Virus record (IMG/VR): IMGVR_UViG_3300020451_002514
Coordinates: 1 to 55,046 of that record
From: a virus
Taxonomy: Duplodnaviria; Caudoviricetes
Direction: 5' to 3' (one strand)
DNA: 55,046 nt
Shown piece after piece: positions 42,471-51,140 of the stretch. The translations under genes and the position numbers were made by a program. Numbering within the stretch: the first letter of the stretch is position 1; every line of letters begins with the position of its first letter. Below the pieces are notes generated by a model, which was not told where the DNA came from, did not search any database, and was given only the letters and a program-made list of their open reading frames with translations.

Positions 42471-42944
42471 ATGCCTTATACTCTTTCTTTTTTAGATCAA
42501 AAATTATATCGGAGTCTATCTTTTGATGCTGATATAAAGTTTCCTGAGTCCAGTGACTTTGTTAAGAAGTTTTGGATATTAAAGGAATATAAAAAAGTTA
42601 GTTCAGATTTGGAGCTTTCAGAGTCTAAAGATTCTGACAAAGAAATGACAAGCTCTTCTTCTTATGAGATACACAAAAGGTTTCAAGGTGATGAACTTAT
42701 CGTTGAGATAGTTCAAAGCCTTGCTTTTTGTGAAGAGTTTAATTATTTTAGTAAGGCAGATTTTGATTTGCCTACAGGAGATGAAGAATTAGATAAAATG
42801 CTTACTGATATAAAAGATTCTGATTTTGATGAATCAGTTATAAAAGCTTCTATCTTAGATAGTGTGCTTCAAGGAAACTATCCTCAAAATCCTGATGATG
42901 AACCAAAAGAGGAAGAAGAGTCCTCTGAGGAATCAAGTGAATAG
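42471..42944 (+). CDS. Hypothetical acidic protein
   Basis: The ATG at 42471 lies 10 nt after GTGTAA (42455). Confidence 0.6.
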   Translation: MPYTLSFLDQKLYRSLSFDADIKFPESSDFVKKFWILKEYKKVSSDLELSESKDSDKEMTSSSSYEIHKRFQGDELIVEIVQSLAFCEEFNYFSKADFDLPTGDEELDKMLTDIKDSDFDESVIKASILDSVLQGNYPQNPDDEPKEEEESSEESSE

Positions 42945-43773
42945 AGTTTTAATAACTGGAGCTGGCGGATTTATAGGAGGCAACTTATCCGAATATTTAG
43001 AAGCTCGTGGGTTTCAAGTTACAAGATTTGATATATCTTTAGGTAATACTGGTTATCCAGATATTTTCAATCAAGACTTTGTAATTCACCTTGGTGCAAA
43101 TTCAAGCACTACAGAAACCGATCTAAAAAAAATATTAGATCAAAACTTTGAATACTCAGCCAACCTTTACAAGATGTGTGAGGCTTATGAGATAAAGTTT
43201 CAATATGCTAGTAGCGCATCTGTTTATGGGGCATCTAAAACTTTCAAAGAAGATGAGTTTTGTAAACCATTGAGTCCTTATGCTTTTAGCAAGTATATGT
43301 TTGATTGTTGGTTAATGAATCAAGAATATCCATACCAAGGGTTTAGATATTTTAATGTGTACGGTTTGGGTGAAGATAAAAAAGGAAAGCAAGCTAGTCC
43401 TGTTTCAAAATTTATAAAAGAAGCGCAGACAGGTGGTAAAATAAAGATTTTTGAGAAAAGCGAAAAATACAAAAGAGATTTTATTTCTGTAGATGATGTG
43501 TGTGAAATGCACTACAAGTTTTTGACAAATGAGGCTTCAGGAATATTTAACATAGGTACAGGTAAGCCTATCTCTTTCAGAGATGTAGCAGAAATAATAA
43601 AAGAAAACTCTAACTCTGAGATAGAAGAAATACCAATGCCCAAAGAGCTAAAAGGGCAGTATCAAAAATTTACAAAAGCTGATATATCAAAGCTAAATGA
43701 AATAATTGGTGATTATGAGTGGAAAAGTGTAAGTGAATATGTAGAAGAAAACATTGATGCTTTCCTTAATTAA
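42937..43773 (+). CDS. hldD: ADP-L-glycero-D-manno-heptose 6-epimerase
   Basis: ITGAGGFIG; IHLGANSSTTE; YASSASVYG; PLSPYAFSK; FRYFNVYG...KGKQAS; RDFISVDD; YQKFTKAD. Confidence 0.88.
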   Translation: MNRVLITGAGGFIGGNLSEYLEARGFQVTRFDISLGNTGYPDIFNQDFVIHLGANSSTTETDLKKILDQNFEYSANLYKMCEAYEIKFQYASSASVYGASKTFKEDEFCKPLSPYAFSKYMFDCWLMNQEYPYQGFRYFNVYGLGEDKKGKQASPVSKFIKEAQTGGKIKIFEKSEKYKRDFISVDDVCEMHYKFLTNEASGIFNIGTGKPISFRDVAEIIKENSNSEIEEIPMPKELKGQYQKFTKADISKLNEIIGDYEWKSVSEYVEENIDAFLN

Positions 43774-44023
43774 AAGTGTTTTAAAATCAATTGAGCTATA
43801 TTTATCTTTAAAAAATAAGCTCTTCTACATAGAATTAAGACATAACCATGAAAAAACACGTAAAAGAATTATTCAAGAGATTGAAGATCTTAGGGCTAGT
43901 GGCGGTGATGCAGACCGTGCTGATCTCTTGCGAGACGAACTCATCCGTGAAGACGCAAGTTTTAAATATTTATCAGCCTTCTACGCTGAGTCTAGAGAAG
44001 GGAAGTCCGATAAGGACAACTAA
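43754..44023 (+). CDS. Putative i-spanin (Rz-like)
   Basis: Amphipathic N-terminus and coiled-coil body, overlapped out of frame by a lipoprotein gene. Confidence 0.5.
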   Translation: MMLSLIKSVLKSIELYLSLKNKLFYIELRHNHEKTRKRIIQEIEDLRASGGDADRADLLRDELIREDASFKYLSAFYAESREGKSDKDN

Positions 44024-44117
44024 AGGTGTCTATACTCCAGAAACCGATGAGGTTTGGCACTCTGATGCGAGGTTCCGCAAACTTGAGCGCCAGTTATATT
44101 TTCCCAGCAATAAGTGA
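43848..44117 (+). CDS. Putative o-spanin lipoprotein (Rz1-like)
   Basis: Basic N-region, hydrophobic ILGLVAVMQTV, lipobox LISC. Confidence 0.6.
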   Translation: MKKHVKELFKRLKILGLVAVMQTVLISCETNSSVKTQVLNIYQPSTLSLEKGSPIRTTKGVYTPETDEVWHSDARFRKLERQLYFPSNK

Positions 44118-46278: not shown

Positions 46279-46956
46279 ATGAAGAAATTTATTCTTACAC
46301 TACTATTGGGCGCTATCTTTGGTGGCGCAGCGTTTGGCACAACTCTAGCAGATTCTTCTGTAGGAGTTGGCTTTTCAGCCTCTAATTTTGAAACAAGTAG
46401 AGGTTTAGCAGTTAGAGAAGACTCTCTGGGTTATTCTCTTAATTTAACAGCTCCCGTAAGCGGTGGAGACCTTTCTTTCGGTGTCGGCTTGTATGATATC
46501 GATGGAGATTCTGAAGATTCAGATTACTCTATTTCTTATACAAGAGGCATTGAGTTATTCGGTCAGAAACTAGGAGCAAAAGCAAGCTTTTCAGGACTTG
46601 ACTCTACTTTTGGAGACAGGGATGAAATTGCAGTAGGTTTACTTTACAAGTATTCTATCGTAGATGCAGAATTAGCCGTTTGGCATGATTTTGATAACGA
46701 TTGGTACGGTGTTGAAATTGGAGCTTCTACCTCTGTTGAGACCCCTATTTCAAATCTTACAGTAACCCCATTTGTTACTTTAAATCTTGTAGACGAATAC
46801 ACTGCTATTGAGGCTGGTCTCAAAGCAAGTTATCCTGTTACAGATCAAATATCTACATCCTTAAAAGCATCTTACAATAATAATGACTTTGATGGATCTT
46901 CTTTTGAAGTAGAAGACGAGTGGATTATTGGCGCAGGAATAGGATACAAATTCTAA
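46279..46956 (+). CDS. Outer-membrane beta-barrel protein
   Basis: Sec signal MKKFILTLLLGAIFGGAAFG, alternating beta strands, C-terminal Bam signal IIGAGIGYKF. Confidence 0.8.
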   Translation: MKKFILTLLLGAIFGGAAFGTTLADSSVGVGFSASNFETSRGLAVREDSLGYSLNLTAPVSGGDLSFGVGLYDIDGDSEDSDYSISYTRGIELFGQKLGAKASFSGLDSTFGDRDEIAVGLLYKYSIVDAELAVWHDFDNDWYGVEIGASTSVETPISNLTVTPFVTLNLVDEYTAIEAGLKASYPVTDQISTSLKASYNNNDFDGSSFEVEDEWIIGAGIGYKF

Positions 46957-46993
46957 TTAAAATTAATTTTAAATTAGTTTTAAAAACAAAATT

Positions 46994-47023
46994 AAAAAGC
47001 TCTCCGCAAGGAGGGCTTTTTTT
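46994..47023 (+). terminator. Rho-independent terminator
   Basis: AAAAAGCTCTCC-GCAA-GGAGGGC-TTTTTTT (GNRA loop, U-tract). Confidence 0.9.
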
Positions 47024-47029
47024 GTGTAA
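47024..47029 (+). promoter_or_regulatory. GTGTAA motif (candidate late promoter of the lysis cassette)
   Basis: Immediately after the terminator and 9 nt before the ATG at 47039. Confidence 0.55.
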
Positions 47030-47038
47030 GTACTTTCA

Positions 47039-47356
47039 ATGGAACCAGAAAAATCCTTGTTAAAAGAATTCCTTCAGGGTGGATGGCTTGTCCCTTTGAT
47101 TGGAGCCGCCGCCATGTTTGCTAGACTTTTGTCTGGAGATAATGAATTGTCTATAAAACAACAATTTAAAAGGATTCTTACTGCCGCCTTAGCATCAGGT
47201 GTGGCTTGGTTTATCTTAGAACAAACTGATGTATCATCCCTTACAAAAGCCATAACTTATGGTATAATAGGCGTAGTTAGTCCAGAAGTTATAGGAGGCA
47301 TTGTTAGACTAGCTCAAAGATTTGAAAAAAATCCAGAAAAATTTCTTAAAAAATGA
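47039..47356 (+). CDS. Putative holin
   Basis: 105 aa, three hydrophobic segments, basic C-terminus, upstream of the endolysin. Confidence 0.65.
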   Translation: MEPEKSLLKEFLQGGWLVPLIGAAAMFARLLSGDNELSIKQQFKRILTAALASGVAWFILEQTDVSSLTKAITYGIIGVVSPEVIGGIVRLAQRFEKNPEKFLKK

Positions 47357-47958
47357 GACCCAAAATTATAGTTTACTGTCTTTCAATAATTTGTCTACTC
47401 TTTGGTGTCAAAGGGTTTGAACTAAACAAAGATATACAAAATACACTAAAAGAAAACGCCAGACAATCAGAGTCTTCTATTATGGAAATAGGAATGTGCT
47501 TTGATTGGTATGGTGTGATAATAGTTAATTCTGTAATTAAAACATCTCACGGTACAATGACACCAGCAGAGATGGTAGATACTTTGAAAGAGGAGAGTGG
47601 TTATAAGGATGAATATCTAGAGGGTTACAAAAAAGACATTACGCCGAAAGAGAAAGAGTATGCTGAGTTTGTTTTTGCTCAAGAAGAGAAGATAAGTGCA
47701 TATGTAGATGAACTAATCGCTTGGGCGGAGAAAGGTGATATAGAAATGATTAAAGCCTCTATACCTAGAATGTATGAAATGACAGATCCAACTATTGATG
47801 CTATAAACAATATTATGGACACAAAAATGTACTATAATGAGGAGCAATCAGAGATTCTAAACCAGAAGATAGAGAGGTTTTCTGATTTTATTTGCCTATT
47901 AATGGCTTTATGCGTAGTGATGTCTGTAAGTGCATCATTTAGCAGAAAATGTAGATAA
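47353..47958 (+). CDS. Two-TM membrane protein with chemoreceptor-like four-helix bundle sensor domain
   Basis: TM1 - DWYGVIIVNSVIK...ITPKEKE...MYEMTDPTIDAINNIMD - TM2 - stop. Resembles 4HB_MCP_1. Confidence 0.6.
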   Translation: MRPKIIVYCLSIICLLFGVKGFELNKDIQNTLKENARQSESSIMEIGMCFDWYGVIIVNSVIKTSHGTMTPAEMVDTLKEESGYKDEYLEGYKKDITPKEKEYAEFVFAQEEKISAYVDELIAWAEKGDIEMIKASIPRMYEMTDPTIDAINNIMDTKMYYNEEQSEILNQKIERFSDFICLLMALCVVMSVSASFSRKCR

Positions 47959-47959
47959 G

Positions 47960-48580
47960 ATGAATTTTAAAGGCAAAAAAGAAGTAGTAAAAGCTGTTCA
48001 AAAACTTATTGGCGTTTCTGCTGATGGGGCAGATGGACCTGTAACTTGGAATGCTATTTTGTCTGAACTATCAACAAAGAAAGATAATATGAATGGTAAA
48101 GACGTACCTCAAAAAATGGTTTTACTAGCCCGTGAGGAGATAGGTGTATCAGAAGTTGATGGAAGCAATTGTGGACCCAGAGTTGATGAATACAAAGCCG
48201 CTACTTGGCTTGACCCAGATAAAGGCTGGCCTTGGTGCGCTGCTTTTATTTGCTGGTTAGTAAGAGAAGCCATTGAAGGAGAAGATGTAAAATTTAAAAG
48301 ACCTAGAACTGCTGGAGCATGGGATTTTGAGAACTGGGCAAAACAGCAAGTTGCAAATGGTGTAGATCTCCGCAAGCCAACTAATGAAGCTATTAAAGCT
48401 GGAGATATTGTTGTGTTTACTTTTTCTCATATAGGTATTGCTGTAAAAGACATAGACTCAAAGGGTTATGTAACTACTATAGAAGGTAATACTAATGGAG
48501 CTGGGAGTAGAGAAGGTGGCTCTGTGTTAGAGAAAAAACGTCACGTTTCTAAAATAAGAAGTAGGATAAGAATTCTTTAA
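47960..48580 (+). CDS. Endolysin: peptidoglycan-binding domain plus CHAP amidase
   Basis: VKAVQKLIGVSADGADGPVTW (PG_binding_1); PWCAAFICW...GDIVVF..SHIGI...TIEGNT (CHAP). Confidence 0.9.
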   Translation: MNFKGKKEVVKAVQKLIGVSADGADGPVTWNAILSELSTKKDNMNGKDVPQKMVLLAREEIGVSEVDGSNCGPRVDEYKAATWLDPDKGWPWCAAFICWLVREAIEGEDVKFKRPRTAGAWDFENWAKQQVANGVDLRKPTNEAIKAGDIVVFTFSHIGIAVKDIDSKGYVTTIEGNTNGAGSREGGSVLEKKRHVSKIRSRIRIL

Positions 48581-48969: not shown

Positions 48970-49158
48970 ATGGAAGTAATTCTCAAATTAATTGAAGACA
49001 ATCCTTGGTTCGGTGTTCTTACCGCCGCAATCGCTTTCGCATCTGCAATTACAGCAGCAACTCCTACTCCAAAAAAGGGTACTCTTTGGGCTAAAATTTA
49101 TAGCCTTATAGATTGGGCTGCTATTAACATAGGCAAAGCGAAAGATAAAGGGGAATAA
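48970..49158 (+). CDS. Small membrane protein, holin-like
   Basis: Hydrophobic segment plus ASAITAATPTPK...IDWAAINIGKAK. Confidence 0.55.
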   Translation: MEVILKLIEDNPWFGVLTAAIAFASAITAATPTPKKGTLWAKIYSLIDWAAINIGKAKDKGE

Positions 49159-49196: not shown

Positions 49197-49571
49197 ATGA
49201 GTATGCAGCCTATTTTTAGTCGATTAGAAGTTCACCCCAAGGGTTGGGGAGAAGAGCTTTGGATTACCAACAATTATAAATATTGTGGTAAAATTTTGCG
49301 CTTTAAAAAAGGGTCTTCTTTCTCTATGCATTATCATATACAGAAGGAAGAAACTTGGTGTGTTACTAGGGGTAAGCTTAAGTTAGAATATTTTAATTTA
49401 GAGAACTCTGAACGTTTTGAAAAAGAGTTAATAGAAGGCGACACTGTTCATTTAAAACCCTGCATACCACATAAGTTGACGGCTTTAGAGGACTCGGATG
49501 TATTTGAGGTTAGCACCCAACATTTTAATGAAGATTCTTATAGGGTAGAAAAAGGTTCGTCGCAGAAATGA
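49197..49571 (+). CDS. Cupin sugar isomerase-like protein
   Basis: KGWGEELWI...SMHYHIQKEETW...PHKL...EVST...DSYR. Confidence 0.8.
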   Translation: MSMQPIFSRLEVHPKGWGEELWITNNYKYCGKILRFKKGSSFSMHYHIQKEETWCVTRGKLKLEYFNLENSERFEKELIEGDTVHLKPCIPHKLTALEDSDVFEVSTQHFNEDSYRVEKGSSQK

Positions 49572-50314
49572 AGTTTTTAGTTATAGGTGAAACTTGTAAA
49601 GACGAGTTTTGCTATGGCAAAGCTAATCGTTTGTGTCCAGAAGCTCCTGTTCCTGTATTTATACCAGATCATAATACAAGCAACTTAGGTATGGCGGCTA
49701 ATGTTTATGAAAATATGCGGGCTATAGATAATGAGACTCATAAAGATATGCCTCTTAAAAATGACATAGCATTAAGTACTAATTACTGCGTTGGTTCTAA
49801 AACTAGATATATTGACATAGAATCAAATCAAATGTTTTTAAGGGTTGATACAGATAAGTATGAACCTTGCGACAAACTGCCAGAAAACATAGAATCATTT
49901 GATGCTATTATTGTTTCAGATTATAACAAAGGTTACCTAACAGACTCGCAGTTAAGAGAGATAGCAAGTAGGAGCAAGCTAAGTTTTTTAGATACGAAAA
50001 AAAACTATAATCAAGAATGGGCTAATTTGTTTACTTTTATTAAGATAAATGAAAAAGAACATAAGGAGAACGGTTGGACACATCAAGGAGAGAACTTGAT
50101 AATTACAAAAGGTTCAAAGGGTTGTTGGTATAATAGCAAAGATTATAAACTGAGTAAACCTTCAGAAGTTAGAGATGTTTCGGGCGCAGGAGACACATTC
50201 TTAGCTGCGTTTGCCTACTCATATACTGCTACAAAAGACATTGAATGCTCAATAATATATGCTCAAGATTGTTGTCAAAGAGTCATTAAAAAGAAAGGCG
50301 TTGCTACAATATGA
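49568..50314 (+). CDS. hldE: Heptose-7-phosphate kinase (HldE/RfaE domain I, PfkB family)
   Basis: RLCPEAPVPV; GMAANV; KTRY; RVD; VSDYNKG; DVSGAGDTF. Confidence 0.88.
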   Translation: MKFLVIGETCKDEFCYGKANRLCPEAPVPVFIPDHNTSNLGMAANVYENMRAIDNETHKDMPLKNDIALSTNYCVGSKTRYIDIESNQMFLRVDTDKYEPCDKLPENIESFDAIIVSDYNKGYLTDSQLREIASRSKLSFLDTKKNYNQEWANLFTFIKINEKEHKENGWTHQGENLIITKGSKGCWYNSKDYKLSKPSEVRDVSGAGDTFLAAFAYSYTATKDIECSIIYAQDCCQRVIKKKGVATI

Positions 50315-50805
50315 AACATAGAAAAATAGTATCATTTGAAGAAGTTAAGCAAGAGAGGCTTTTTGCAAAAGAGCTTGAATCTTGTGGAATAAAAAAGTTT
50401 TTTATTTTCACCAATGGATGTTTTGATTTATTCCATGCTGGTCATGCAAGCCTACTTAATGCAATGAAGAGCGCTTGTAGTTTAAACTCTAAGCTGGTAG
50501 TTGGTATAAATGGAGATGCGAGTGTTAAATCTATAAAAGGTAAAAACAGACCAATAATACCAGCGAAACAAAGAGCTTATACAGTAGCTTGTCATGAATC
50601 TGTTGATTATGTTTTTATTTTTAATACTAAAACTGTAGCTAAACAACTAAAAGAACTTCAGCCAGACTTCTGGTGTAAGGGTGGCGATTATGATGAAGAT
50701 GCTTTAAATAAATCAGAGATGAAAGCAAAAGGTAATGCTATATTAAAAGTTATACCATTTATAGAAAACATAAGCACTAGCGATATTATTAAAAAAATAA
50801 AATGA
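50311..50805 (+). CDS. hldE: Heptose-1-phosphate adenylyltransferase (HldE/RfaE domain II)
   Basis: FTNGCFDLFHAGH; VGINGDASV..IKGKNRPI; VDYV; KGGDY; STSDII. Confidence 0.88.
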   Translation: MKHRKIVSFEEVKQERLFAKELESCGIKKFFIFTNGCFDLFHAGHASLLNAMKSACSLNSKLVVGINGDASVKSIKGKNRPIIPAKQRAYTVACHESVDYVFIFNTKTVAKQLKELQPDFWCKGGDYDEDALNKSEMKAKGNAILKVIPFIENISTSDIIKKIK

Positions 50806-51140
50806 AATACATTGTAGATATTGACGGCACAATTTGTACACATGACAGCCCAGATACTCCTTACGACCAAGCAAGGCCAATAAAAGATAGGATACACTTT
50901 TTTAATCAATTATTTGATGCTGGTCATGAGATAGTTTACTGGACTGCTAGAGGGGGTAATAGTGGCAAAGATCATACTACCTTAACAAAAAAACAACTTG
51001 ATCAGTGGGGCGTTAAAAGAACAAAATTAATGATGGGTAAGCCGCCATATGATTATTGGATTGACGATAAAGCTTACAATGTAAAAGATTTTTTTATGAC
51101 TGACACGACAACGGGGGAGACAAAAACAATTACATTATGA
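50802..51140 (+). CDS. HAD-family phosphatase
   Basis: VDIDGTIC; YWTARG; GKPPYDYWIDDKA. Confidence 0.85.
   Translation: MKYIVDIDGTICTHDSPDTPYDQARPIKDRIHFFNQLFDAGHEIVYWTARGGNSGKDHTTLTKKQLDQWGVKRTKLMMGKPPYDYWIDDKAYNVKDFFMTDTTTGETKTITL

Follow-up and report, generated by a model that had tools for sequence, protein, structure and literature searches.

We analysed a 55,046-nucleotide (nt) stretch of viral DNA (Duplodnaviria; Caudoviricetes), positions 1 to 55,046 of the IMG/VR record IMGVR_UViG_3300020451_002514 and hereafter called the window, in which the gene for a small membrane protein, here called the sensor, lies between a holin-like gene and an endolysin gene. The 55-kb phage fragment is estimated to be 40% complete, has a GC content of about 32%, and also encodes a DnaE-type polymerase, a ribonucleotide reductase, a DnaB-like helicase, a Lon-like protease, and heptose-pathway genes. 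The sensor has two transmembrane (TM) segments, and the part between them resembles the four-helix bundle (4HB) sensor module of methyl-accepting chemotaxis proteins (MCPs). The features of this region are the following (aa, amino acids; AF2, AlphaFold2):

46994–47022, plus strand: intrinsic-terminator-like hairpin with a T run, between an upstream outer-membrane protein gene and the lysis genes
47039–47356, plus strand: holin-like gene, 105 aa, similar to LydA and holin superfamily III (PF16083, phrog_6384, hydropathy, charge)
47353–47958, plus strand: stand-alone 4HB_MCP-type sensor module, 201 aa (AF2, VIA-align, family profile, hhalign)
47362–47424, plus strand: TM1 of the sensor, about residues 4–24 (hydropathy, conservation)
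47425–47877, plus strand: predicted periplasmic four-helix bundle of the sensor, about residues 25–175 (AF2, VIA-align, hhalign)
47878–47943, plus strand: TM2 of the sensor, about residues 176–197 (hydropathy, AF2)
47960–48580, plus strand: CHAP endolysin, 206 aa (PF05257, PHROG endolysin families)

The stop codon of the holin gene and the start codon of the 201-aa sensor share the letters ATGA, an overlap of 4 nt, and the TAA of the sensor (47956–47958) is separated by a single base, g (47959), from the endolysin ATG at 47960. This succession of holin-like gene, ATGA overlap, two-TM protein, 1-nt gap, and endolysin had been described in an initial annotation of the window, and its coordinates and junctions were confirmed from the sequence. 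When positions 46985–47035 were folded as RNA, the energy was −18.5 kcal/mol (z −4.78) and none of 200 shuffled sequences was as stable; the hairpin at 46994–47022 was not among the calls of a consensus terminator scan. Because this strong hairpin with its T run is just upstream of the holin gene, the holin, sensor, and endolysin genes look like one unit. One 151-nt metatranscriptome contig covers the sensor/endolysin junction (47899–48045), which is too little to claim co-transcription.

The endolysin matched the CHAP family PF05257 (E 9.5e-9; 36.1 bits, cut-off 26) and, among the PHROG endolysin families, phrog_9589 best of all (E 2.5e-14). Since it has no signal sequence, this enzyme needs a holin. 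The 105-aa protein matched the LydA holin family PF16083 with an E of 2.1e-4 and 21.8 bits, under the cut-off of 28.4, and all 14 members of its family matched the same profile (best E 1e-5). A match to phrog_6384, annotated as holin, was obtained for the window protein (E 5.6e-4) and for relatives of it (E 5.5e-7 and 5.5e-8). Hydropathy and charge show three hydrophobic segments in the protein, with positive charge in the first loop and a charged, net-basic C-terminus; one of its loops is conserved (LEQTD.SSL.KA). Its predicted topology is N-out, C-in, with only short periplasmic stretches.

The linkage between holin and sensor was followed in two sets of loci. The set seeded with the sensor comprised 80 close loci (70–93% identity) and 14 loci of three distant clades, whose sensors are 21–25% and whose holins are 37–65% identical to those of the window; the set seeded with the holin comprised the best 80 of 457 IMG/VR stretches encoding a relative of that protein. 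In 78 of the 80 close loci the holin gene was directly upstream of the sensor gene, and the other two begin 58–69 nt before the sensor. Among the distant loci it was upstream in 13 of 14, the remaining one beginning 49 nt before the sensor, and the same 4-nt overlap was present in seven of the distant-clade loci. When the search started from the holin, an open reading frame (ORF) of the sensor family was found directly downstream in 76 of the 80 loci (gap −74 to +5 nt; E ≤ 1.7e-13), encoding proteins of 210–255 aa with hydrophobic ends, and in the four exceptions the sequence ends 1–696 nt past the holin gene. The pair was complete in every testable locus (91 of 91 from the sensor and 76 of 76 from the holin). 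The holin–sensor pair is obligate in both directions, usually with overlapping frames, and the conserved linkage supposed by the initial annotation extends well beyond the clade of the window.

The close homologues of the sensor come from marine surveys, and no match to the sensor, the holin, or the 6-kb region was found among 50,697 isolated-phage records (tblastn and blastn). Searches for related loci with P0126, P0141, and P0135 as queries returned nothing. A complex prediction for holin and sensor gave a score of 0.00, which carries no weight for or against binding. In an alignment of the loci L099–L165, the holin-like proteins and sensors of many clades were seen to end in Lys/Pro-rich basic tails of 20–50 residues.

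As for the endolysin, a CHAP enzyme was encoded directly downstream of the sensor in 69 of the 80 close loci, and nine others end too early to judge; L076 and L077 have at least 1.1 kb downstream of the sensor without a CHAP lysin. No CHAP lysin was present within 4 kb in the 14 distant-clade loci, and none was found across five distant records, which are 4–64% complete. In the holin-seeded set an endolysin was detected within 2.5 kb in 67 of the 80 loci, belonging to GH19 (35), the phage lysozyme family GH24 (12), or Peptidase_M15_3 (20) and in no case to CHAP. Clades other than that of the window have either no lysin within 4 kb or lysins of the GH19, GH24, and M15 types nearby. Because the pair adjoins four unrelated endolysin types (CHAP, GH19, GH24, and M15), its role in lysis is well supported, by strong guilt by association. 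The synteny of holin, sensor, and endolysin, which the initial annotation had named as a check, holds for holin and sensor everywhere testable, while the order with a CHAP endolysin is limited to the clade of the window.

Spanins are of two types, the i-spanins, which have an N-terminal TM segment and a periplasmic coiled coil and are paired with a lipoprotein, and the u-spanins, which have an N-terminal lipobox and a C-terminal TM segment. A gene with u-spanin architecture was found in 17 of the 80 holin-seeded loci. It is exemplified by L109:680–1111, with counterparts in 16 other loci, which encodes a 143-aa protein whose lipobox, LLTSC, is N-terminal and whose TM segment is C-terminal; its gene immediately precedes the holin-like gene. 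The sensor itself was rejected as a spanin, having two TM segments and, as inspected by eye, no canonical lipobox before C9 or C14.

The two strongly hydrophobic segments of the sensor are at residues 1–24 and 175–197, with about 150 residues between them and a tail of 4 residues past TM2. The TM helices are among the best-conserved parts of the protein within clades, as would be expected for specific helix–helix contacts, and in TM1 the positions V7, Y8, C9, L10, I13, C14, L15, F17, and G21 are invariant within the clade of the window. An AF2 model based on 27 homologues (predicted local distance difference test, pLDDT, 83.2) consists of helices 3–65, 71–93, 98–127, and 137–199, and bundle helices 1 and 4 continue directly into the two TM segments. 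When this model was compared with 48,161 chains by VIA-align, the five best matches were all sensor domains of MCPs and histidine kinases. The first was 8bsa, an MCP ligand-binding domain (Z 14.2; root-mean-square deviation 2.1; 154 of 158 residues), followed by 4k0d (Z 13.4), 9kup (13.3), 3va9 (12.8), and 6s18 (12.5), and the sensor plus TM part of NarQ could be aligned over 184 residues.

In Pfam, the family PF12729 was absent from the matches of the sensor at E ≤ 1 (its gathering score was not reached), and three of the 27 family members matched it weakly (best E 0.0051). A family profile searched against 1.84 billion representatives gave 51 matches, namely stand-alone relatives (195–257 aa), fragments, and five long proteins (362–541 aa). 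These five, together with one 243-aa protein found by the profile, contain PF12729 at 40.7–85.2 bits (cut-off 27), and four of the five long proteins have MCPsignal above its cut-off; the fifth, a partial sequence of 362 aa, is below it. Aligned by hhalign with those MCPs, 27 diverse stand-alone members gave a probability of 99.1% (E 5.3e-19) over 165 columns, with an identity to the cellular MCPs of about 21%. A second set of 18 members, gathered through the holin, gave 99.07% against the MCPs (E 1.6e-18) and 97.9% against the clade of the window. In the ESM Atlas, the named clusters nearest to that of the sensor were 4HB_MCP_1 (score 0.96), and a profile search of PDB sequences returned designed helical proteins only. 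No HAMP, kinase, or MCPsignal domain was detected in any stand-alone member examined.

From the AF2 model and its structural matches, the profile search, hhalign, and the ESM Atlas, we conclude that the sensor belongs to the 4HB sensor-module superfamily, as a genuine though distant member, and is not an MCP. The resemblance to 4HB_MCP proposed by the initial annotation was therefore borne out as a distant one, and the motifs it had singled out (D.Y..IV....K, TpeE, and Y...DP) are columns common to the family and the MCPs in the hhalign alignment. It was also right that HAMP, kinase, and MCP domains are lacking, as the chain stops 4 residues past TM2. Like the 4HB_MCP_1/TarH modules of Tar, Tsr, NarQ, Vc1313, and PcaY, the sensor is built of TM1, an up-down four-helix bundle, and TM2. 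Unlike the proteins with those modules, it ends in a tail of 4 residues (or in a basic tail in other clades) instead of an output domain, has its gene on viral contigs, next after that of a holin, and stays under the Pfam threshold. Cytochrome b562, the name that one source gives to the homologue P0024, was rejected, with no cytochrome family detected in Pfam at E ≤ 1, and the Foldseek matches of the sensor to BRIL fusions reflect the generic bundle, not cytochrome b562.

The 120 close homologues listed are all 182–201 aa long and the distant homologues 195–257 aa, and the only fused forms are remote MCPs (E of at least 1.7e-6). The same architecture is kept across clades at 21–30% identity, almost wholly on viral contigs. 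A scan of 185,579 species genomes (one each) with the holin profile gave one match, on a 1.8-kb contig with phage-like neighbours in an Acidimicrobiaceae metagenome-assembled genome, which is probably a mis-binned viral contig. In the 12 loci in which all three genes could be aligned full-length and gap-free, the median ratios of nonsynonymous to synonymous substitution (dN/dS) relative to the window were 0.048 (sensor), 0.055 (holin), and 0.060 (lysin), with dS near saturation in most. The sensor gene is maintained under purifying selection. A recently truncated host gene, an origin with which the initial annotation would have had to be abandoned, was rejected because the family is deep and almost wholly viral, is under purifying selection, has uniform lengths, and is fused only in remote relatives.

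In two close loci the sensor has diverged markedly further from the window than the proteins encoded on either side of it. The holin and lysin of L003 are 99% and 100% identical to those of the window but its sensor is 92% identical, with a higher dS as well; for L024 the corresponding values are 95%, 97%, and 81%. This suggests exchange of sensor alleles by recombination.

Genes for putative outer-membrane proteins accompany the pair. In the holin-seeded set, 64 of the 76 loci with a sensor carry, downstream of it, a gene of the A6 family, encoding a secreted protein of 144–155 aa (for example L109:2074–2508; the 63 others are among L098–L177). In 62 of the 76 its start is −10 to +20 nt from the sensor stop, a spacing from which translational coupling of barrel gene and sensor may be read. 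The A6 protein is predicted to form an 8-stranded barrel (pLDDT 86.6), closest to OmpX, Ail, and the TM domain of OmpA (Foldseek 1.1e-5). Throughout the clade of the window, a different protein is encoded upstream of the holin:

46279–46956, plus strand: putative outer-membrane beta-barrel-like secreted protein, 225 aa (signal peptide, C-terminus ...GYKF, weak MipA match, synteny)

The MipA match of this 225-aa protein (E 1.8e-3) is under the cut-off, its class being assigned from sequence, and it has no sequence similarity to the 144–155-aa barrels of the other clades. The outer-membrane barrels are a possible envelope-spanning element outside current lysis models.

The obligate holin–sensor gene order, found in this uncultured marine phage and in hundreds of aquatic relatives, suggests that an extracytoplasmic signal tunes the moment at which the host is lysed. 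Because the sensor has no output domain, only membrane or periplasmic partners can read it, and because the holin is the only partner always present, we propose the holin as the reader. The sensor would be produced together with the LydA-like holin from the overlapping frame and would sit beside or inside the holin assembly in the inner membrane, where its two membrane helices would set when the holin triggers. In chemoreceptors and sensor kinases of the 4HB type, TM2 moves relative to TM1 in response to what happens in the bundle. A similar shift in the phage protein might be read by the holin in place of a HAMP domain. That the sensor is a holin regulator or antiholin, which would act through membrane contacts and set holin triggering, is the explanation that we tentatively prefer, as one that is plausible while still short of probable. 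Within it, gating by a cue is less certain than regulation itself. That the sensor physically touches the holin, that it alters the timing of lysis, and that a cue exists, whatever its nature, are inferences. The fuller proposal, in which a captured chemoreceptor module would time lysis in many uncultured marine and freshwater phages, its bundle reading a cue and passing it through the TM helices to the holin, is more doubtful and on present evidence rather unlikely. Candidates for the cue are a small molecule and the condition of the phage-encoded outer-membrane barrel, for example when another phage attaches.

Among known systems, the closest gene arrangement is that of lydA/lydB in phage P1. 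There, too, the end of the holin gene and the start of the next gene share 4 nt, and the two genes may occur apart from that of the endolysin; the holin of the window belongs to the LydA family by a weak profile match, and LydB, annotated as a LydA antagonist, has a hydrophobic N-terminal segment as the sensor does. The parallel is one of gene arrangement only. In T4, the antiholin RI attaches to the holin T through the large periplasmic domain of T (PMC11413866). RI resembles the proposed role of the sensor in being a lysis regulator whose working part is periplasmic and which responds to an external cue (PMC8385771, PMC11413866), a response that is only proposed here. The systems differ in that the present holin has no such domain, so that sensor and holin, if they touch, would do so within the membrane or close to it, and in that they are not related in sequence or fold. 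The T4-style periplasmic contact between antiholin and holin to which the initial annotation had appealed is unlikely, as the periplasmic loops of this holin are short. TeaA and ArrA of phage ICP1 are a holin–antiholin pair shown experimentally to give lysis inhibition, and ArrA was found among TM-domain-containing proteins encoded next to the holin; the available part of that report mentions no relation of TeaA or ArrA to 4HB modules (PMC7182436).

Several points weigh against holin regulation by a 4HB sensor. The fold alone is not decisive, because four-helix bundles are common, Foldseek found no match of the sensor in the PDB at E ≤ 0.001, and a Z of about 14 is typical of helical models by VIA-align's own note; the MCPs used in hhalign were chosen by the sensor family's own profile. 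The holin assignment is built on family matches below threshold, that of the window protein to PF16083 included, and a pairwise BLASTP comparison with P1 LydA gave an E of 1.1. P1 LydB (147 aa, one hydrophobic segment) is unrelated to the sensor (hhalign 0.2%). Small two-TM proteins of one family are encoded in 69 of 80 related loci, and the antiholin proper, or a second holin, could be among them. Sensors of different clades share 21–25% identity and holins 55–65%, a gap that one would not expect if the sensor were a membrane partner in tight co-adaptation, though such fast divergence would fit a fast-evolving sensing surface. Finally, coupling of the barrel gene to the sensor in 62 of 76 loci suggests that the bundle may face an outer-membrane partner and not regulate the holin.

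This last point leads to an alternative, opened by barrel genes that the initial annotation had not noted, in which the bundle contacts the phage outer-membrane barrel instead of a small ligand and either helps to breach the outer membrane or reports events there, such as the attachment of a second phage, to the holin. The frequency of the A6 barrel gene (64 of 76 sensor loci, tightly adjoining in 62), its OmpX-like fold, and the different putative outer-membrane protein encoded directly upstream of the holin in the clade of the window all speak for such an envelope link. Among the structural matches of the sensor is also QseE–QseG (9m08; Z 10.4), a 4HB sensor kinase with an outer-membrane lipoprotein. 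However, the barrel is lacking in 12 of the 76 loci and also in the clades of L082–L094 and L097, and the outer-membrane protein of the window, which shows no homology with the barrel family, is encoded on the far side of the terminator-like hairpin from the holin. The bundle helices, of about 40 residues or roughly 6 nm in the AF2 model, are short of the usual periplasmic width. Moreover, outer-membrane "moron" genes are found by the lysis genes of lambdoid phages (bor, lom), and u-spanin-like genes already serve outer-membrane disruption in some cassettes. We hold a link of this kind to be unlikely. An equally improbable explanation, in our view, is that the sensor is a structural co-holin, both proteins forming the hole and the bundle being a periplasmic dimerisation or scaffold domain with nothing sensed. 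Obligate pairing and overlapping frames favour co-production, 4HB sensor modules are typically dimers, and long, very basic C-terminal tails are found on both proteins in many clades, as on holins. Nevertheless, the window's sensor has a tail of only 4 residues, so the basic tail is dispensable, and the MCP hallmark columns kept over deep divergence suggest more than a scaffold, although these could be purely structural.

The initial annotation had also offered a decoy that poisons host receptors. In its broader form, the sensor would have no part in lysis, would form mixed dimers with host 4HB receptors or block phage entry, and would adjoin the holin by genomic habit. Homology to host sensor modules and the quick evolution of the ectodomain between clades are in keeping with it, but a decoy fits poorly with a holin linkage that is obligate and overlapping wherever it could be tested and that is hard to ascribe to habit, and a similarity to cellular MCPs as remote as about 21% identity is poor for mixed dimers. 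In addition, Shine–Dalgarno-like motifs were found at 2 of 43 gene starts in the window, compared with 5.5 ± 2.5 at random positions. This near-absence is a hint that the host can do without such motifs and would fit a Bacteroidota-like host, and many Bacteroidota have no flagellar chemotaxis. We consider a decoy or exclusion function very improbable.

Two cellular systems are of interest as analogies only, being signalling proteins with no link to lysis. One is GlnX of Corynebacterium, a membrane protein that figures in a paper mentioning 4HB_MCP (PMC9769921); the other is QseE, a 4HB sensor contacting an outer-membrane lipoprotein (title of PDB entry 9m08). GlnX has 4HB ectodomains and is not known to have a classical output domain. 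Among 8.1 million papers and 0.36 million preprints, with subscription journals largely outside the scope of the search, no description of a 4HB or chemoreceptor-type module in phage lysis was found. Cue-dependent timing of lysis has been worked out for very few phages, T4, ICP1, and N4 being those treated in the papers found. If regulation of the holin by the sensor is true, abundant aquatic phages that have not been cultured would offer, in this pair, a candidate for environmental control of lysis that can be tested, and a small two-gene cassette to study in laboratory strains. A sensor module would address its output to a pore-former, in place of a kinase or chemotaxis array. If a cue is sensed as well, a lysis-inhibition-like system would have been made from signal-transduction parts, unrelated to T4 RI or ICP1 ArrA.

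Two further small genes of the window may be connected with lysis:

48970–49158, plus strand: small one-TM protein, 62 aa (phrog_9685, unknown function, E 3.3e-4; hydropathy; synteny)
43848–44117, plus strand: small lipoprotein, 89 aa, lipobox VLISC, possible o-spanin, overlapped by the ORF 43754–44023

The one-TM protein (62–65 aa, with a charged tail) is retained near the pair in the clade of the window and was also seen near it in a distant clade (L097:2886–3083; 59% identity), and could be a further holin or an antiholin-type protein. The lipoprotein has homologues in L096 and L097, and an 89-aa ORF (43754–44023) overlaps its gene in another frame, an arrangement that is the same in L097. 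It may be the o-spanin of an embedded spanin pair, but the overlapping ORF has no clear TM segment. Genes for sugar-nucleotide metabolism were observed on both sides of the lysis region (42862–43773 and 49197–51140), encoding an epimerase, a cupin, a PfkB-type kinase, a cytidylyltransferase-like protein, and a HAD phosphatase, which suggests a heptose-type pathway.

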